The translations under genes and the position numbers were made by a program. From the IMG/VR virus record IMGVR_UViG_2541047778_000001: a DNA stretch of 7,680 nucleotides. One strand, 5' to 3'. Of this stretch, positions 1 through 7,680 are shown piece by piece (positions within the stretch are counted from its first letter, which is position 1; each line of letters begins with the position of its first letter). This stretch comes from a virus (lineage: Duplodnaviria > Heunggongvirae > Uroviricota > Caudoviricetes). The notes under the pieces are model-generated. The model saw nothing but the letters and a program-made list of their open reading frames with translations. It did no database searches and was not told the DNA's origin.

Positions 1-41
1 CGTTGACGGACTTCGGGGGAAAAACGAGTATTTTTAGTCAT
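1..41 (-). CDS. IS629-like transposase OrfA, first 13 codons only (partial, runs off the window)
   Basis: ATG at 39-41 (minus strand) sits about 8 nt after AAAGAGGTAAACAGG. The translation MTKNTRFSPEVRQ matches my memory of the IS629/IS1203 OrfA N-terminus. Confidence 0.7.
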   Translation of the reverse strand, partial: MTKNTRFSPEVRQ

Positions 42-95
42 CCTGTTTACCTCTTTCTCAGGAAGTTTAGTCTCCAGGATTCCCGGGGCGGTTCA
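1..95 (-). mobile_element. IS3-family insertion sequence (IS629/IS1203-like), left end with terminal inverted repeat; element continues leftward beyond the window
   Basis: Reverse complement of 61-95 reads TGAACCGCCCCGGGAATCCTGGAGACTAAACTTCC, which has the TG terminus of IS3-family ends and matches my memory of the IS629 left end. It is followed by a GAGG-type RBS and an ATG opening MTKNTRFSPEVRQ. A 23/25 inverted copy of the same terminal motif lies at 7586-7610. Confidence 0.8.
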
Positions 96-1057
96 AGCTG
101 TTTATCAGAAATGCCACCCAGACCATCGCTAAATGTTCTGACTAAATTTTCTCGTGCTTGTTGTTGATTCAGCCGATTCTTACCGGTTCCAAAAAAAGGA
201 ACTCTTTCGCCTAATGTCTGAGCCTGACTCTGCATAAAGGTTTTATCTTTCAGCGTGTCACTGGTCATTAACGGCAGGTTTCTTTCCGACGCAAAATCGA
301 CAGCAGCCTTTGCTTCCGGTGACATCTCACCGCGAACAGCCCTGGAAACCGCACTAACTGTATTTTCCAGCCCCTTGCCAACACCACCAATGCCAGCAGA
401 AATTACCGTTTGTGCAGGATCAATATCTTCTCCGCCAGCAAGGCTGGTGCCACCCTGTAGTGCTAAATCTGTAGCAGCTGATTTCCCTATGGCACCAAGC
501 ACCGTTCCAGCCCTGCCCGCTGGTGTGAACGCTAACGCATTAGCAAGAAACGAAGTCAGGTCTTGCGGTGATAAACCTGGCTTGTTCAGGGCATAATCAC
601 CGGATGGCAGGGAAACGATAGTGTTACCCTTCTCATCCTGCCTTAATTTCGCCCCCATACTCTGAAGAATCTTTTCCTGAGACGCGTCGGAGCCGAAAAG
701 TTGAGACCATCCAGCCTTCAGGGCATCCATGCTTAGTGAGTTCAACTCAGGGGCAGCCCCAACATTTTGCAGTCTCTCCATTTCTGGTGTCATTCGGCTT
801 TCACCGGTAACGGCATCGCGCATTGCAGCACCTAAAACAGCCCCTTGCTCAGCAGAGCGATCTAGTCCTTCCTTCTGCTGAGTGGCAAGCTGTGCATATC
901 CTGATGCAAGTGAGTTGTCTGCTGGCGATTGCTGAACACCTTGTTGTGTTGGCGCTGACTGACCAGCAAAATACTCATCAATGGCGGACCCAATATCTTC
1001 CGTGCTCGTACCATCAGGAAAGGTAAATGTCTTACCATTTGCAGTTACTTTCATCAT
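47..1057 (-). pseudogene. P22 gp16-like DNA-ejection (internal virion) protein, 3'-truncated by the IS insertion; native part is 96-1057, the last 15 codons and stop are IS-derived
   Basis: Position in the gp7/gp20/gp16 ejection cassette. The N-terminus [23 protein letters not shown] is followed by a Gly/Ala/Gln-rich sequence. The ORF is about 336 aa, whereas P22 gp16 is about 609 aa as I recall. The frame runs straight across the IS terminus at 95 and ends EPPRESWRLNFLRKR, encoded by the IS inverted repeat. The start overlaps the gp20-like stop (ATGATGA). Confidence 0.75.
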
Positions 1058-2505
1058 TCCACCGTAAATTGAATGCCTGATTTTGACGTGTAGCTACCTC
1101 CTGCTGATTGCTGAGTAGCTGGCTGTTGCCTTGATGATTTCTTCCCGCCATTACCAACATTAACGTTATATTGCTGGTTGTAATTGTCGGTATATTGCTG
1201 AATGTCGCGCATTGATTGTTGCAGCGCTTCAGGACTTGAGAAATCAGGCTTTGGCATACCCTGAAAATACCTATTGGCCTCTGCTTCGGTGTTGATGCCA
1301 GATGCCCCCATATCTCGGGCTGCTGCAATCCCCTGATTTTGCATTTTGCCCATGATTCGCTGTGCAGCGTTGTATAGCCTCCTCTCCTCAACACCAGATG
1401 CCCTGCTACGAATATCTGCACCAAGAGCAAAAGAACCTGAAGAACCTGTAATACCTGTCATGAAGCCAAGATCGTCAATTGATGCGCCAGAAATTGCATC
1501 AAGATCTTTCTTCATTTCGTAATTCTGTGCATTAGCTGCCGATGTAGCCGGAGCAGCAATAGAACTGGCGGGGACGCGAATCATATTGCCCTCGTTGTCT
1601 ATTCCTTCGTAGAACGCATTAGCACCAGCGCCGTGAAGCTTCCTACCAACCGTTACCGTTCTGCCATCTGCCAGTTGCACAACATTCTCCCCGCCAGCAT
1701 CAGGACGACCTCGAACACGAAGATATGTCTTTTGTTGCTCTGGAGACAGGCTGTTGAAATATTGATATTCTTTAACAGATGCAGGAACAGCACCTCCAGC
1801 AGTGCGCAGGGAGTTTTCACGGCTAACAGCAATGCTTTGCGCCTTTAAACCTTCCCCAGCTTTATTGCTGCGAATCGTCTCTGCCAACTTGCCACGCTCA
1901 ATATCCCGACCTTCCATTTGATCTTTGATATCGAAATACTTCTCATGACCGAGAGAAAATAGTGCCAGATTACCTGCGAAGTGCTGGAAGCCCTGCGGGT
2001 CATTAACCTGCATTTCCGCAATAGTTTCTGGAGGGATACCTAAACGACGCATCTCCTTTTCGTTATCCATCATGAACCTGCCAAATGCACCCGGACCAAG
2101 CGACGAAGCGACCTGAGCCTTAAGCGCCAGATTGCCAAAATCATCCCGCTGGGCGTCATCGACATACCCCATGCCTTTACGGACTTCCTCAAACTCTTCG
2201 GGGAATGCTGTAATAAGATTACGCATCTGCTCCCTGTCGCCGGACGCATAAGCATCCGCATAACCTTTCTGGAATGCCGCTTTACGCTCCTGCTTTTGCT
2301 GCTGCTTATAAATATCAGCAACTCCAGCCAGACCACGAAGACCTGTCAGAGCAACGTTATTTGCACCTGATCGAGCCAGTTCATTGTTTTCGCGGATCAG
2401 ACCAAGCGTTGCGTTAATGTCGCTTGCCTTTGGCGCATTCTCATTTTGCGTACCGATGCCAGCCAGAAACCCACCAGAATTAATACCCTGTTGCCACGTA
2501 GCCAT
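1054..2505 (-). CDS. P22 gp20-like DNA-ejection (internal virion) protein
   Basis: 483 aa (P22 gp20 is about 471 aa as I recall). It lies between the gp7-like and gp16-like genes. Composition is rich in Q, N, A and G, including a tail [26 protein letters not shown]. The ATG is preceded by AAGGGGTAATCA. The stop overlaps the gp16-like start. Confidence 0.8.
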
Positions 2506-2515
2506 TGATTACCCC

Positions 2516-3208
2516 TTAAAACAACGAGCCAAGCAGACCAAGACCAGCACCGATACCAGCACCCCACGGAGTTGATAGCTCGAGAGCACTGGCTATGCCA
2601 CCACCCAAAAGCGCACCGGATGCAGCACCACTAACACCCTGCTGCAATGCTGACGGTCGGTTGGCGTTTGCCGCTGCAAGAGCCGCGCTTTGCTGTGAAA
2701 TCTGACTCATGTTGTTGGCATATGTTTGCCCGGCGTTTGCCTGCCCCTGAAGAGCGCCAAGACCGATATTTGCCAGGTTGTTGTAATTGTTCATTTGTCC
2801 AGATAGCCATTGCTGACCAAGCGTTGGTGCGATTGTTGCTAACTGATTACTGGTTGCGGTGGAACCCAATCCACCTGTTGCTTCCGCTGCCGCCAGACTC
2901 TGATAGCGAGCCTGACCTGCAAGGTCTTTATACTGCTGAGAGTTGTAATACTGGTTAAGTGCCTGACCTTGCCCTTCCAGAGACGATAAGTTCTCAAGGC
3001 TGCCGACATACTTCCCAGCCAGAGGAGTAAACAGCTTCAGGTTGTTCATGATGGTGTTGAACTGCTGATTTTGCAGGTCTGCGGCATACTTCTGAGCTTC
3101 TGCTGCATACTTTGCGCTTTTATCAGAACTGCCACCTTTCCCGCCTTTTTCAGGGTAATAAGGTTCCTCGCCGCGCAGTTTTCTGCCCAGCGTAAATGCA
3201 TATAACAT
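2516..3208 (-). CDS. P22 gp7-like DNA-ejection (internal virion) protein
   Basis: 230 aa (P22 gp7 is about 229 aa as I recall). The body is low-complexity Q/N/A/G-rich. The C-terminus is Gly-rich and hydrophobic (GALLGGGIASALELSTPWGAGIGAGLGLLGSLF). RBS GGGAGA lies upstream of the ATG at 3206-3208. Confidence 0.75.
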   Translation of the reverse strand: MLYAFTLGRKLRGEEPYYPEKGGKGGSSDKSAKYAAEAQKYAADLQNQQFNTIMNNLKLFTPLAGKYVGSLENLSSLEGQGQALNQYYNSQQYKDLAGQARYQSLAAAEATGGLGSTATSNQLATIAPTLGQQWLSGQMNNYNNLANIGLGALQGQANAGQTYANNMSQISQQSAALAAANANRPSALQQGVSGAASGALLGGGIASALELSTPWGAGIGAGLGLLGSLF

Positions 3209-3210
3209 GG

Positions 3211-3666
3211 CTATCTCCCGTGATTCAGGAAGTCGATTAGTTCTTCGCGTGTGGCGCTGTAAAACGTCACGTCATCCACGCCTTTGAAGTATTTCTTGAT
3301 GGTTCCTACACGCTTAAGGCCAATCATTGCGCAGTACATCTGCCCGTGGCGGAATTTGCGTGCAGCAAATGATGTGACGCACTGAACGGTGGTGTTGGTC
3401 AGAATGTATCGCCAGAACGCCAGCCCTATTTCCTTGCTGAAGCCGCGAATCTCTGGCAGGTACATGGCGTGGCAATCGAATGTAAGCGGCTGAATCTCCT
3501 GATAGTAAACAATGCCGCCAAACTGACCGTGCACGTTCACCTCAAAGTAACGGCAATCAGGTTTGTAGTCGTATCCATCACCGTTGTTGCTCCCGGCGAT
3601 GATGTCAGGGTGATTTCCTACTGCTTCGATCAGGTCGATGTTTCGCGTTGGTTTGAATGTAATCAT
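3211..3666 (-). CDS. Protein at the gp14 position of the P22-like module (ejection-protein assembly factor by synteny); function not recognisable from sequence
   Basis: 151 aa ORF whose ATG overlaps the tail-needle stop (ATGA at 3664-3668). It lies between the needle and gp7-like genes, as gene 14 does in P22. I do not recognise the sequence itself ([43 protein letters not shown]...). Confidence 0.55.
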   Translation of the reverse strand: MITFKPTRNIDLIEAVGNHPDIIAGSNNGDGYDYKPDCRYFEVNVHGQFGGIVYYQEIQPLTFDCHAMYLPEIRGFSKEIGLAFWRYILTNTTVQCVTSFAARKFRHGQMYCAMIGLKRVGTIKKYFKGVDDVTFYSATREELIDFLNHGR

Positions 3667-4367
3667 CAGTCAATCAGCCCATGTAATCTAAGTGCTGTTT
3701 CAAGCGCCAGAATACGCTGCCGCGCCTGCTCCAAACCTGTAGCGATAGCTGCGACTTCGGATTGTGTGTACGTAGTGCCGACCGTGTATGACTGGTTAGC
3801 GTTGAATGAGCCAAGAAGTGGTGTGCCTGTGGCCGCTGTCCATCCGGTCTGCCTTGCTCCAACGACCTGAATTCCATCAACTGAATATGATGTTTTTACA
3901 TCCAGCGGTGACGCAAGAGACTGCGATTCTGTTACGGTTTTCGATACGTAATCACTCTTAATGTCAGATATATCGCTTTCTACGCCATCCAGTCTTTGGT
4001 CAACAGTGACCAGATGCGCCTGAATATCGATAACCTCATCCAGCAAGTAATCAACATCGCTACGCAGTACAACTATCTTCCCTTCGGCGGTTGTTAACCT
4101 GACCTCAAGGAGATTTATCGCTTTTGTGTTTGCGGTGATTCTTGCATCGTGGTCAGCCAGTTCGACATCCTGTTCATCGTTTTTCACCTGAGCATCGTAA
4201 GCGCCCTGACCAGCCTGATTTGCTTTCCCGGCAATTGCGCCGACATCAGCCCCCTGATTAATGACATACAGCAGGTAAGACTGGCTGAATATATTGCGTG
4301 GAAGGATTGATGTATCGAGCCGCGTCGCCTGCACAATAACAGGGGTGTTGAGATTCGAATCAGCCAT
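3666..4367 (-). CDS. Tail needle (P22 gp26-like), short form of 233 aa
   Basis: N-terminus [36 protein letters not shown] matches my memory of the P22 gp26 N-terminal portal-plug domain. A heptad-like coiled-coil region follows. Length 233 aa equals P22 gp26. The start overlaps the gp10-like stop (TAATG). The ORF track's longer 267-aa version (start at 4469) is an upstream read-through into the gp10 gene. Confidence 0.85.
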
Positions 4368-5785
4368 TACTCGATCCTTATCTGGCAGCCAGACAGAGTG
4401 ACAGGTGACTTCGTGATAACGCGCAATTTGAAGCCGACATTTTTCCTGATGCGCCCGACTCGCTTCCACAAAACGCGTTTGTCGTAAACAAACGGTTCAT
4501 TCTGCTCAATCATCTGCTCACGACCGTAATTGATGCCGTCAGTGGTTGCAGAGAGAAAAAGGCGGTCGGCGTACTGCGCAACGCCAGTTGAAGATTCAAC
4601 TTCAAGGTCGAAAACTCTGGCGTTATCCGCTTTGAACAGAGGAGTAAACAGCAGATGCTCCTGTTGCTTGTCGTACTGGCTGCTGATGTCGAATTGCAAT
4701 TTCCCGGTCACGGACTCCAGCTTATCGCCGCACGTTATCTGATTGCCTTCGTAAATGAAGTCGATAGCGCGGTACACATCGTCATACAGACCTGTTTTCA
4801 GTACACACCATTGCGGAGCATTGGCGCTTGAAGATGCGTCGTATACGAGGACATGGCGCGGAAGATGGATAATCAGCAGCTCATGCGCATCAAATCGCAG
4901 AGACTCCATCACACCATCAGCCAGTTCATCAGCAGTGTAGGAGCGAAGAATTTTCTCAATGCTCGCGCTGGCGATTGGTGACACCTGCCCGGAACCGATG
5001 ATGTATACAGACGGCGCACCTGTTGCCGGATTGCTGATGAACGCATAGGAATCAGCGAATGGCGTTTTGCAATAGGTTCCGGCGATGCCTTTTTGCACCA
5101 TCAGTGATGGCTGTGCGACATACAAAGCAGCACCAACGGTGGTTGCGCCAGTCAGGGAGAAATATTCAATAGTCGATGAACCAAAGCAGACGATGAAGTC
5201 TCGCCATGTCCCGATACCGATGATGCCGTCCGGCTGCGATTCTGCGCGATATTGTGCACTGTATCGGTCAGGGTGCGATTCGTCTTCAAGGTCAGTGATA
5301 AACCATGAATCAGTTCCGTCTTTTGACCACGCATAACGCCCACGTAAGCGAGTAATGTCGCGAACTGAACCTAACTCATACTGCGTGAATCCACTGTCTG
5401 TAGGCCAGTTTGAGACGGTTTTAACCGTGCCATCATAACGATACTCGACCAGTTGACCATTAACGCCTACAGCCTGTGATGTTCGACCATGCGCCATTGA
5501 TACGCGACCACTTCCGGCGACGTCACCGACTTCGCTTTCTCCTTTGTACAGCTTGCCGCCACACACGCGATAAACAGCACTCTGCGCCATGTTGTACTCG
5601 ACGCCGCGCGATATACCATTCACATCAGAACGTTTGGCAATGCCCGGGAATGAGCGAAGATATCCGCTGCTGTTCAGGATTTCTTTGGGCGTAGCCAACA
5701 TATTCACTGGCAGATAGTCGATATAGTCGGCGTTTCGAAAGTCTTTGCCGACACCTTTCATAAGCGGAAGTTGCTGAATCGGCAT
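4367..5785 (-). CDS. P22 gp10-like head-completion / tail hub protein
   Basis: 472 aa, the same length as P22 gp10 as I recall. N-terminus [58 protein letters not shown] lies 6 nt upstream of the ATG. It sits between the gp4-like and needle genes. Confidence 0.85.
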
Positions 5786-5794
5786 TTATTCACC

Positions 5795-6256
5795 TCACGT
5801 ACTCGGATCATCTTTCTCGATGTAAAACCGATTCCACGTAAACGCGCTTTTGTTACCACTACCGCGAGGCATGTCATTTCGCCGCTCAAGTGGTGGTATT
5901 TTGGTTAAAGCGATACAGATTGTCTGATATGCACTGTCAGCAGCGGTAAGGAGAGCGTCTGACGGCTGAATGACGTTATCCATGCACACTTGCACAGCGA
6001 GTTTCAAAGCGACGCCATCATTTGCCCATGCAGGGATGCCTGAATCATCGTCAGGTAACGGCATGATGCCGTTTTCTGTATCAGCAAACTGATACCCAAG
6101 CTCGATACCTTTCGCCTGCCATGCTGCCATCATGTCTTCGAGGTCATTAATGGCATCTTCAATTGCCTGAGGGTCAGCATCTGTCAACGTGGCATTGGAA
6201 TACAGCCCGGCTTTTCGTAAAGCCTTTAGAACGAGATCACCCTTCGTTTTCGCCAT
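5795..6256 (-). CDS. P22 gp4-like head-completion (tail adaptor) protein
   Basis: 153 aa (P22 gp4 is about 166 aa). N-terminus MAKTKGDLVLKALRKAGLYSNATLTDADPQ. Located immediately upstream of the gp10-like gene. Confidence 0.7.
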   Translation of the reverse strand: MAKTKGDLVLKALRKAGLYSNATLTDADPQAIEDAINDLEDMMAAWQAKGIELGYQFADTENGIMPLPDDDSGIPAWANDGVALKLAVQVCMDNVIQPSDALLTAADSAYQTICIALTKIPPLERRNDMPRGSGNKSAFTWNRFYIEKDDPST

Positions 6257-6425
6257 CTTCTTCCGCCTTAGCCACTTTTTGCTTCGTTGCGGTTTCTTCA
6301 GGAGTTTTTACCCAACCTTTTTTCAGGTGAGATTTAACTTCTTCGTCATCAACAATGATGTAATCGACAGCAAACTGACCGCAGGTGATCATGTTGCCTG
6401 GCTTATAGAGCATTGTTCGTGCCAT
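6237..6425 (-). CDS. Small hypothetical protein (62 aa) between coat and gp4-like genes
   Basis: ATG at 6423-6425 is preceded by a strong RBS (TTGGGAGAAGACAATG). Translation is MARTMLYKPGNMITCGQFAVDYIIVDDEEVKSHLKKGWVKTPEETATKQKVAKAEEDGENEG with an acidic C-terminus. The 3' end overlaps the gp4-like start by 20 nt. Sf6-type phages carry a small gene at this position, as I recall. Confidence 0.5.
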   Translation of the reverse strand: MARTMLYKPGNMITCGQFAVDYIIVDDEEVKSHLKKGWVKTPEETATKQKVAKAEEDGENEG

Positions 6426-6436
6426 TGTCTTCTCCC

Positions 6437-6460
6437 AATAAAAATGGGGCCGAAGCCCCA
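6437..6460 (-). terminator. Intrinsic (rho-independent) terminator just downstream of the coat gene
   Basis: On the minus strand, 6 nt after the coat stop: TGGGGC-TTCG-GCCCCA (6-bp GC-rich stem, UUCG tetraloop, 6445-6460) followed by TTTTTATT (6437-6444). Confidence 0.6.
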
Positions 6461-6466
6461 CCAAAA

Positions 6467-7585
6467 TTACTGCCCAGCAATAACGATGCCCGTATATTCA
6501 GGAACCAGTACAGAGCAACCGTACAGAGTGGTGAAACGCGCAGTGGTTACGCCTTTGATGTGGTCGAAGGAGTAAGACATGATCAGCGTAGCGCCCTGCT
6601 CGGTGGTTGCTGTCATTACCTGTGGACCCTGACCAGTTGGGAACGCCAGTTTGCCGTACATCAGTTCAACAGAACCATCAGCCCAGAACAGGTTAGCAGG
6701 TGCTGCGTTCTTGTTGAGAATGGTGATTGCTGCTGATTCTGCCGGTTTGGCATCGACGTTTGCATATGGACGACTCGCAACATCAGTATTTTCAACAGGG
6801 AGAATCTTTGGAGAAATTGTTACGGTAGTTCCGCTAACAGCCAGAACACGGAATACCTGCGGTTGACCGGTGGTATCTTTTGTGATCTGGTGTACGGAAT
6901 TCACACCGGCAATGGTGAACGCATCACCAACCTGCAAGCCAGATGCAGATACCGTAATAGTCCCCTGTCGGTTATCAACTGGCATACCATTTGAATCTTT
7001 CGCTTCAACCTTGTGTTCAGGTTGGCCTGATACTGTCAAGGATTCAGTGCTTCCTTTCGGTAATCGACCAGAAATATCGGTCTTGTAGCTATCGAAGGAC
7101 GCAACCGGAGGGATTTGCGCTTTTTCGTATGCTGTCAGGGTTGCGCCCTGAGCATAGGCACGGTGACCAAGCTCGCCAGCAAGGTCTTTGTAGTTGAAGG
7201 GGTTCCAGAAAGAGCGACGGTTGATACCCTGAGGTACACCAATCGCCGTCATGGTGGCATCAATACCTGCCGCACAGTTCCACAAATCACGGCCCTGTGT
7301 ACCTGCGGTTGAGTCAGCCATCGTGATCACGTTAGTAGCACGCTGCGTGACCATGGAAATCAGGTCAGAGTCAATCTGTGCAGCAAGGCGCATACCTGCG
7401 GCGCGACCAGCTTCAGTTTTATGTTCCGGATCACGCATTTCACGCGCATCCAGAGTGTACAGAATGTTTTTCGGCTCCTTGAACACTGAAGGAACAAGGC
7501 GCTGAACCAGTGCTGTTGGCGTTTTGCTGCTGAGGTCGAGGCCTTCCTCAATATTCATGTGGTAATGCTGCGGACGATACAGAAC
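6467..7585 (-). pseudogene. P22-type major coat protein, 5'-truncated by the IS insertion (about 45-55 N-terminal codons missing)
   Basis: The 363-aa ORF aligns by eye with remembered P22 gp5: EGLDLSSKTPTALVQRLV vs EGWDLTDKATGLLELNV, RSFWNPFNYKD vs TSYFFNPQDYKK, and RPYANVDAKPAESAAITILNKNAAPANLFWADGS vs [34 protein letters not shown]. Its Met-1 corresponds to about residue 55 of P22 coat. The frame stays open 9 codons upstream to the IS boundary at 7585 and on into the IS until TAA at 7616-7618. There is no Shine-Dalgarno before the ATG at 7556-7558. Confidence 0.8.
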
Positions 7586-7680
7586 TGAACCGCCCCGGGT
7601 TTCCTGGAGAGTGTTTTATCTGTGAACTCAGGCTGCCAGATCATCGTTTCCGATGGAAGCATAATAAGCTTTTTCTGCTT
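7586..7680 (-). mobile_element. IS3-family insertion sequence (IS629/IS1203-like), right end with terminal inverted repeat; element continues rightward beyond the window
   Basis: Plus strand 7586-7620 reads TGAACCGCCCCGGGTTTCCTGGAGAGTGTTTTATC, matching my memory of the IS629 right inverted repeat. It matches 23/25 of the terminal motif at the left window edge in inverted orientation. Confidence 0.8.
7628..7680 (-). CDS. IS629-like transposase OrfB, C-terminal 16 codons plus stop (partial, runs off the window)
   Basis: Minus-strand frame gives ...AEKAYYASIGNDDLAA then TGA at 7628-7630, 42 nt inside the IS terminus. This is consistent with the end of an IS3-family OrfB, but I cannot confirm it from memory. 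Confidence 0.5.
   Translation of the reverse strand, partial: AEKAYYASIGNDDLAA

Follow-up and report, generated by a model that had tools for sequence, protein, structure and literature searches.

A P22-type late gene segment between two IS629/IS1203-type ends in a CUS-3-like prophage of Escherichia coli

The 7,680-nucleotide stretch of DNA analyzed here (the window) begins and ends with a piece of an insertion sequence (IS) and carries phage late genes in between. This layout raises the question of whether the segment is a mobile unit with IS arms or a part of a prophage that has been interrupted by IS copies. Our analysis suggests that the window is, with high probability, a contig of a decaying CUS-3-like prophage interrupted by a multicopy IS629/IS1203-type element, a case of ordinary IS-driven decay.

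IS ends and phage late genes in the window

The features of the window are listed in Table 1. Read on the minus strand, the right IS copy ends with its IRR at 7586 and the left copy begins with its IRL at 95; the two copies are therefore in direct orientation, as the preliminary description had proposed. The terminal inverted repeats at 71-95 and 7586-7610 are 25 nt in length, 92% complementary, and 7,490 nt apart. Complete copies of the same 1,310-bp IS3-family element are found in E. coli FY26 and E10, and this element is 96.26% identical, over 1,310 nt and with no gaps, to a copy in O157:H7 annotated as "IS3-like element IS1203 family". In the complete copies, RefSeq annotates orfA/orfB with a "programmed frameshift" (-1) and an AL1L pseudoknot. 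The genes of an IS copy in the source scaffold (IS-0) match the Pfam families HTH_Tnp_1, HTH_21, and rve.

Table 1 Features of the window (positions in window coordinates)
Feature	Position	Strand	Evidence or remark
IS left (IRL) end	1..95	-	0 mismatches to the first 95 nt of the 1,310-bp IS of FY26/E10
IRL	95-71	-	Inverted-repeat arm; IS body runs leftwards into a scaffold gap
orfA start codon	41-39	-	Followed by 13 codons (MTKNTRFSPEVRQ), by translation
gp16-type DNA-ejection/DNA-transfer gene, 5' part, 319/670 codons	96..1054	-	PHROG 770 DNA transfer protein, PHROG 29864
gp20-type ejection protein gene, 483 aa, intact	1054..2505	-	Pfam Inj_translocase 9.9e-81; PHROG 917
gp7-type ejection protein gene, 230 aa, intact	2516..3208	-	Pfam P22_gp7 8.2e-129
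gp14-type head assembly gene, 151 aa, intact	3211..3666	-	Pfam DUF2824; PHROG 651 head morphogenesis
gp26-type tail needle gene, 233 aa, intact	3666..4367	-	PHROG 1219 tail needle protein 1.1e-113
gp10-type head closure/DNA stabilisation gene, 472 aa, intact	4367..5785	-	Pfam Phage_stabilise 1.2e-299
gp4-type head-tail adaptor gene, 153 aa, intact	5795..6256	-	Pfam P22_Tail-4 7e-41; PHROG 637
Small conserved phage ORF, 62 aa	6237..6425	-	PHROG 1175 9.2e-29; annotated in the APEC O1 prophage
Coat (gp5-type major capsid) gene without its first 135 nt (45 codons)	6467..7585	-	Pfam P22_CoatProtein
IS right (IRR) end, second copy	7586..7680	-	0 mismatches to the last 95 nt of the 1,310-bp IS
IRR	7610-7586	-	Inverted-repeat arm; IS body runs rightwards into a scaffold gap
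orfB stop codon	7630-7628	-	Translation; the window contains 16 orfB codons

The identification of both edges as IS629-like ends thus holds, with the same size and 96.3% identity to the O157 IS1203-family copy, a value inside the 4-5% spread of IS629 subtypes. The element resembles IS629/IS1203 of O157:H7, O111, and Shigella in its 1,310-bp length, its TGAACCGCCCCGGG... terminal inverted repeats, and its orfA/orfB -1 frameshift, and also in making 3-bp target-site duplications (TSDs) at simple insertions and in preferring prophages. It differs in being an ExPEC/APEC-associated subtype, whose transposase WP_151327001 is named only "IS3 family" in RefSeq, and in that the two copies beside the window lack TSDs.

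Between the IS ends lie 7,490 bp of a P22-type late module, according to Pfam and PHROG searches. The genes follow the order coat-gp4-gp10-gp26-gp14-gp7-gp20-gp16 with matching protein families, and the PHROG matches across the segment include major head protein, adaptor Ad3, closure Hc3, tail needle, DNA ejection, and DNA transfer protein. A search of NCBIfam gave no models for the phage proteins of the window. The gp16 and coat genes are truncated by the IS ends. At gp16, a chimeric reading frame crosses into the IS for 16 codons and ends at position 47, and its called 335-aa product matches Pfam Phage_P22_gp16. We note that this frame is 336 aa from its first ATG and 335 aa from the annotated start. 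At the other edge, the full coat CDS would span 6467-7720 in window coordinates; the P22_CoatProtein match covers profile positions 50-423 of 423, and the longest reading frame of the remnant is 363 aa, from an internal ATG at 7558.

The source prophage and its assembly

The window coincides exactly with a single contig of scaffold KE700025.1 in assembly GCA_000457855.1, a short-read draft of an extraintestinal-type E. coli, and it is located between two N runs. Its reverse complement corresponds to positions 3375-11054 of the source scaffold excerpt, in which 1,040 N adjoin the window 1 side and 1,110 N adjoin the window 7680 side. The IS bodies beside the window are assembly gaps, and the assembler stopped 95 nt into each repeat; the stubs at the two edges are of equal length because the assembly broke in the repeat. 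Therefore, of the two edge copies described earlier, the ends are real and their orientation is direct, but the copies themselves are unsequenced in the source. Equal-sized IS stubs at both edges can mean that a window is an entire draft contig, and "two IS copies bracketing a segment" may reflect the assembler more than a mobile unit.

The symmetric 95-nt stubs, which show that the assembler shaped the contig ends, might even suggest that the stubs are chimeric contig ends and that the prophage is uninterrupted at both sites. We consider such an artefact very hard to believe. The junction sequences are inside contigs, and the neighboring contigs carry the complementary IS ends in the right orientation (terL is followed by 120 nt of IRL, and the C-terminal half of gp16 is preceded by 95 nt of IRR, both 100% identical to the FY26 IS). 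Moreover, an independent metagenome scaffold (L007) has the same IRR-coat junction, differing at 1 of 4,285 nt, and the junction between IRR and the gp16 C-terminal half recurs in three closed genomes described below. A Logan contig sharing the 363-aa coat reading frame was rejected as a second instance; its coat gene carries a frameshift but is otherwise intact.

The source prophage is a CUS-3-like (P22-type) prophage integrated at tRNA-Arg/intS (argW). The segment in the window is collinear with the argW prophages of APEC O1, S88, and DSM 30083 at 99.8-99.9% identity. Compared with APEC O1, the 319 residues of the gp16 5' part are identical, the gp20-type protein has 0 amino acid differences, and all 17 SNPs are located within 7094-7553, in the coat gene. 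CUS-3 itself is the P22-like neuO prophage of K1 strains (PMC3046976). Window positions 2302-7585 are 99.5% identical to CUS-3, whereas the gp20/gp16 ejection-protein part (95-2301) is a different allele. CUS-3 is K1-specific and resides at argW in ST95-complex E. coli. The source prophage occupies this locus too and likewise has intS, an endosialidase-type tailspike, and an acyltransferase with an AAGACTC heptamer repeat. It differs from CUS-3 in having at least four IS copies and two deletions, and it cannot be functional.

IS insertions and deletions in the source prophage

When aligned with the intact APEC O1 prophage, source positions 1087-8648 map to reference 393-7954, positions 9974-17464 to 12001-19491, and positions 18694-23117 to 19491-23914, followed by a jump to 27013. 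At least four copies of the 1,310-bp IS are found in the source prophage. One is inserted after codon 319 of gp16, and the remainder of the gene lies directly beyond it, with no bases lost and no 3-bp duplication; the gp16 3' half, which had been thought possibly absent, thus resumes immediately past the left IS. The second copy, in the same orientation, joins terL at codon ~235 to coat codon 46 in the order of the source scaffold. The third and fourth copies are in the opposite orientation, one located 5 nt upstream of ninB and the other at a 3.1-kb deletion, with a truncated ant gene on one side and a remnant of the tailspike gene on the other.

At the terL/coat IS, 4,046 bp are missing relative to APEC O1, comprising the terL 3' half, portal, scaffold, and coat codons 1-45. 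This bears out the earlier proposal that upstream phage genes had been lost. The related suggestion of independent insertions followed by upstream loss comes close to the truth; of the terminase genes, the small one and the 5' half of terL are retained. The preliminary description had also stated what two simple insertions would look like, namely phage gene halves resuming directly after single IS copies with matching TSDs. What we find is mixed: gp16 resumes directly but lacks a TSD, and coat does not resume, with terL on the far side of its IS.

The assignment of one complete IS per gap and the adjacency of the terL and coat remnants are based on mate-pair scaffolding and gap-size estimates. 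The terL/coat gap is 1,110 N, against 1,095 expected for one 1,310-bp IS minus the assembled stubs, and the gp16 gap is 1,040 N, against 1,120 expected. As the N runs differ in size from gap to gap, they are estimates and not placeholders. These figures bear on the reading that two (or three) simple IS insertions occurred with no deletion, the scaffolder having skipped a 4-kb contig with the rest of terL, portal, scaffold, and the start of coat. Only one flank was read per IS end, the source has N in place of the IS bodies, and a missing TSD at terL/coat would be expected if the two ends belong to different copies. However, this reading requires about 6.5 kb in a gap that is within 15 nt of the one-IS prediction and whose size is an estimate, and large IS-bounded deletions are common in this prophage in related lineages. 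We therefore regard a history with no deletion as improbable.

The flanking bases provide further information. Simple insertions of the identical element in FY26 and E10 have 3-bp TSDs (AAC/AAC, GGC/GGC, and GGT/GGT, n=3). The two copies bordering the window have none, with flanks of GAA/GTT at terL/coat and GCT/TTA at gp16. Flank exchange between IS copies was rejected as the cause of TSD loss, as the IRL flanks GAA, GCT, and AAT match none of the known IRR flanks (GTT, TTA, and TCT). If terL and coat each once held an IS copy in direct orientation, RecA-type recombination between the two may have produced the terL/coat junction; alternatively, the junction may have arisen by an IS-promoted adjacent deletion. 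Either route would leave one IS with unrelated flanks (GAA/GTT).

The same evidence bears on the composite transposon that the preliminary description had put forward, in which two direct IS copies and a 7.5-kb phage cargo moved, or still move, as one unit. The formal layout is indeed IS-cargo-IS in direct orientation, with complementary ends across the gaps, and it resembles composite transposons of the Tn9 and Tn10 type in having a DNA segment between two copies of one IS. Unlike these transposons, it lacks both an outer TSD and a selectable cargo, has no second location, and is flanked by the native neighbors of its cargo. Beyond each IS copy the prophage simply continues: terL lies upstream and the 3' half of gp16 downstream, in native order and collinear with APEC O1. 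The outer flanks (...GCGAA before IRL and TTATG... after IRR) share no 3-bp repeat, GAA and TTA forming no TSD. The unit never transposed, because it lies at argW among its prophage neighbors in their native order and no duplication is shared by its outer flanks. IS3-family elements transpose by way of a circle formed from one element, so that composite units rarely move.

Searches turned up no other record in which the segment carries IS arms. The junctions of IRL with the gp16 N-terminal half, IRR with coat, terL with IRL, and IS with ninB occur in 0 of 5,426 complete E. coli genomes, and exact-pattern scans of a metagenome collection (two junctions) and of GTDB species representatives found no further instance. 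Apparent full-length 100% matches to the window in FY26, NCTC11151, BEN5202, and E10 were rejected as stitched pieces; in these strains the IS is at other prophage sites (tailspike, clpP, and gp20), and their coat and gp16 genes are either whole or broken in another way. A genuine composite transposon is thus extremely unlikely, and we return to a decaying prophage interrupted by IS copies.

A complete morphogenesis gene set is absent from the source prophage, in agreement with its earlier description as defective: portal, scaffold, the coat 5' end, and the terL 3' half are missing, gp16 is split, and ant and tailspike are truncated. With no portal, scaffold, full coat, full terminase, or tailspike, such a prophage would be unable to make particles. 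The decay is probably recent, judging from the protein sequences of the seven complete late genes in the window, which match those of the uninterrupted prophage exactly.

These features are similar to the IS-mediated "grounding" of prophages by IS629 in O157:H7 Sakai and EDL933, where a multicopy IS enters prophage genes and deletes adjacent DNA, IS copies are left without TSDs, and draft assemblies break at them (PMC3271280). In O157:H7, 62% of IS629 copies are in prophages, and matching 3-4 bp TSDs are found at only 21 of 47 IS629 sites (PMC3271280). The present case differs in host lineage and prophage only, and in nothing of principle.

Closed relatives and wider readings

A 7.5-kb segment bracketed by direct 1.3-kb repeats would be prone to deletion. 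Three closed genomes of the same lineage (SCU-116, MS20673, and Eco_23-2678) have the identical junction of IRR with the gp16 C-terminal half and share both ant/tailspike junctions as well; 4,640 bp of flanking sequence are 100% identical. In these genomes, a single IS occupies the place of a region that begins in an early gene and includes the gp16 5' half. The loss of the 7.5-kb segment by IS recombination had been anticipated, and the segment is gone in all three; the left end of their deletion is in the early gene and not in terL, so the endpoints differ from those expected of simple recombination between the window-flanking copies. The intermediate state, with the segment bracketed by IS, is seen only in this draft and, for one junction, in the metagenome scaffold.

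The type of event, IS-driven prophage decay, is already known, and knowledge of IS629-type elements or P22-like phages is unchanged by this case. It documents an intermediate stage in the decay of a CUS-3-like prophage, of which the closed relatives represent a later stage, and it may help to type strains and to predict a non-inducible prophage.

A broader reading, which we regard as rather doubtful, is that IS erosion of this prophage is selected and not random and, separately, that the IS subtype makes micro-deletions at its tips or targets its insertion to inverted repeats. For the first part, the lytic and structural modules have been lost by way of the same IS in at least two lineages whose deletion endpoints differ. 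In both, intS, the neuO-like acyltransferase, and the yafO/clpP/arc accessory block are retained. The neuO gene carried by CUS-3-like prophages encodes the K1 capsule O-acetyltransferase. If the reading is true, convergent grounding could retain capsule O-acetylation while abolishing induction. For the second part, the gp16 insertion without TSD, together with differences at the IS tips, could reflect tip-proximal micro-deletion or inverted-repeat-targeted insertion by this subtype. The differences among near-identical relatives are 2-3 nt in size and are located exactly at the IS tips.

IS ends and phage genes in a single draft contig

The first and last 95 bases of the window are non-phage sequence, and all long ORFs are on the minus strand. 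The tips of the two stubs form a 25-nt inverted repeat (92%) at 71-95 and 7586-7610, with a spacing of 7,490 nt. Both stubs match, with 0 mismatches, the termini of an element of 1,310 bp that is present in complete form in E. coli FY26 (n=2) and E10. In RefSeq, this element is annotated with an IS3-family transposase, a programmed frameshift, and the AL1L pseudoknot, and it is 96.26% identical, with no gaps, to an O157:H7 copy annotated as 'IS3-like element IS1203 family'. IS1203 is an isoform of IS629, whose subtypes diverge from one another by 4-5% (PMC3271280). The preliminary description of the edges as IS629-like copies, including their direct orientation and polarity, is thus correct. 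We note that the E10 prophage has two IS subtypes, one with 96.26% and one with 100% identity to the FY26 copy (L003, the E10 sequence, 7511-8820 and 13363-14672).

Features of the window
Feature	Position	Strand	Content or basis
IS left end	95->1	minus	TGAACCGCCCCGGGAATCCTGGAG..., then orfA ATG (41-39) and MTKNTRFSPEVRQ; translation
IS right end	7680->7586	minus	...DDLAA-stop (7630-7628), then ...CCCGGGGCGGTTCA; translation
Phage part	96-7585		
coat		minus	Pfam P22_CoatProtein, profile positions 50-423 only
62-aa ORF		minus	within the phage part
gp4		minus	P22_Tail-4
gp10		minus	Phage_stabilise
tail needle		minus	PHROG 1219
gp14		minus	DUF2824
gp7		minus	P22_gp7
gp20		minus	Inj_translocase
gp16-type DNA-transfer protein, codons 1-319	47-1054	minus	47-1054 is the whole chimeric ORF; its gp16 codons occupy 96-1054

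The seven complete genes contain no stops and no amino-acid changes relative to the intact prophage of APEC O1. The truncated gp16 ORF extends 16 codons into the IS (…KQLEPPRESWRLNFLRKR*) and is a 335-aa gene call in the source assembly. This chimeric protein was a unique tag: exact-sequence matching of it and of the 363-aa coat ORF led to the source scaffold.

The reverse complement of the window corresponds to positions 3375-11054 of L004, the surrounding region of the draft E. coli scaffold KE700025.1 (GCA_000457855.1). Since runs of 1,110 N (L004 2265-3374) and 1,040 N (L004 11055-12094) border it, the window is one complete contig, with the IS bodies unassembled, and the equal 95-nt stubs are the points where the assembler halted inside a multicopy repeat. 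ALLPATHS-LG, with its K=96, would presumably leave stubs of K-1=95 nt, but we do not rely on this value because the stubs of neighbouring contigs are 95, 120, and 121 nt long.

None of the complete E. coli genomes searched carries either window junction, that is, the left inverted repeat (IRL) joined to the gp16 N-part or the right one (IRR) joined to coat. Four apparent full-length matches were rejected as stitched alignments whose IS parts come from copies elsewhere in this prophage. In a Logan contig (L006 1-260, run ERR10498623), an otherwise complete coat gene is split by a frameshift, which leaves the 363-aa ORF also seen in the IS-truncated gene; the frameshift is either an independent inactivation or an error of assembly.

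Insertion in gp16 and deletion at the coat gene

On the adjoining contigs, the complementary IS ends are present and correctly oriented. Stub lengths and gap sizes fit one 1,310-bp IS per gap, which would leave 1,095 nt (versus 1,110 N) and 1,120 nt (versus 1,040 N). The merged source region was mapped onto the intact prophage of APEC O1 as the reference. At the gp16 site, the reference reads ...AAACAGCT|TTATGAATC..., and the source strain reads ...AAACAGCT-[IS]-TTATGAATC..., with 0 bp lost and 0 bp duplicated (L004 11054 and 12189/12190; window 95/96). The target sequence around the IS is continuous, and therefore the gp16 3' half resumes directly after the element. A single insertion in place accounts for this IS, although its junction is atypical in lacking a target-site duplication (TSD). 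Three simple insertions of the identical IS have clean 3-bp duplications (AAC, GGC, and GGT). An absent TSD is not rare in itself, as matching TSDs were reported at 21/47 IS629 sites in O157:H7 (PMC3271280). The right flank, TTATGAATCTGC, contains TGAATC, resembling the inverted-repeat tip TGAACC.

On the IRL side of the IS at the coat gene, terL ends with ...GGAAAGCGAA after about 235/471 codons, and on its IRR side, coat starts from codon 46 (GTTCTG...). Reference positions 7955-12000 (4,046 bp), comprising the terL 3' half, portal, scaffold, and coat codons 1-45, are missing, and the flanking bases, GAA and GTT, do not match each other, unlike those of the three TSD-bearing insertions. These observations indicate that the coat-side IS marks a deletion, with the terL'-IS-coat' adjacency and the count of one IS per gap based on scaffolding and gap-size estimates. 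Such a deletion could have arisen by recombination between two direct IS copies or by IS-promoted adjacent deletion. An independent sequence, the metagenome scaffold L007, has the same IRR-coat junction, with a single mismatch to the window over 4,285 nt.

Decay of a known argW prophage

The phage part of the window is collinear, at 99.8-99.9%, with an argW (tRNA-Arg/intS) prophage of APEC O1, S88, DSM 30083, and some 40 further complete genomes. Window 95-7093 is identical to APEC O1. All 17 nucleotide differences fall in the coat gene within 7094-7553 (460 bp), causing just 2 amino-acid changes, and this cluster looks like a recombined allele patch. The coat protein accession (WP_001558143) is also annotated in FY26 and E10. 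Phage CUS-3, a P22-like neuO-carrying prophage of K1 strains (PMC3046976), matches at 99.5% over 2302-7585 and not before 2302, its gp20/gp16 ejection-protein part (window 95-2301) being a different allele. Phage phiv205-1 matches from 1151 onward. These partial matches reflect mosaicism within the late operon.

Two further IS copies, in opposite orientation, lie in the source prophage, one 5 nt upstream of ninB and the other after a truncated ant gene; beyond this second copy comes a tailspike remnant, and 3,098 bp have been lost there. The prophage thus lacks portal, scaffold, and tailspike, has truncated coat, terL, and ant genes, and has a split gp16; judging from established P22 biology, it should be unable to form particles. 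The long AAGACTC heptamer repeat of its neuO-type acyltransferase (L004 18600-19300), known as the phase-variation VNTR of neuO (PMC3046976), is interrupted by a fourth assembly gap of 455 N, which leaves the repeat number and on/off phase unread in the source strain.

Three closed relatives (SCU-116, MS20673, and Eco_23-2678) share with the source strain an identical IRR-gp16C junction as well as the two ant/tailspike junctions, and their flanks are 100% identical over 4,640 bp. In each of these genomes, a single IS stands in place of a stretch that runs from an early gene (a WP_000812193 homologue adjoining the DUF7739 gene) through the 5' half of gp16 and contains the entire window segment. 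Because they share junctions but have lost this segment, the source strain marks an intermediate step in the decay of this prophage. Since the replaced stretch in the relatives does not begin in terL on the left, simple recombination between the two copies flanking the window does not account for it. Five other closed genomes form a second group with a parallel layout but different endpoints. FDAARGOS_1301, the one inspected (L013 7514-10241 and 13142-15426), has a truncated replication gene, one IS, and a gp16 C-part whose start lies 92 nt further up, as well as an IS between ant and a tailspike remnant. Neither lineage has lost intS, the acyltransferase, or the yafO/clpP/arc block.

The composite-transposon layout proposed in the preliminary description is formally present, but we reject a composite transposon because an outer TSD, a foreign context, and a second location are all absent, the flanks being the cargo's own native neighbours. 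Its alternative, independent insertions with loss of upstream genes in a defective prophage, is essentially right, except that the small terminase gene and the terL 5' half remain and that the gp16 3' half is present. The event is of an ordinary, known kind in a known prophage, since IS629-type elements prefer prophages and delete DNA there (PMC3271280), and IS-grounded prophages have been described (PMC6379469).

Among the near-identical closed relatives, differences of 2-3 nt fall right at the IS tips (L009 12786, L010 12786, and L011 14095). TTA next to IRR is absent in Eco_23-2678, and CC next to IRL is absent in SCU-116 when compared with MS20673. Either genuine micro-deletions or errors in long-read assembly could explain these differences.
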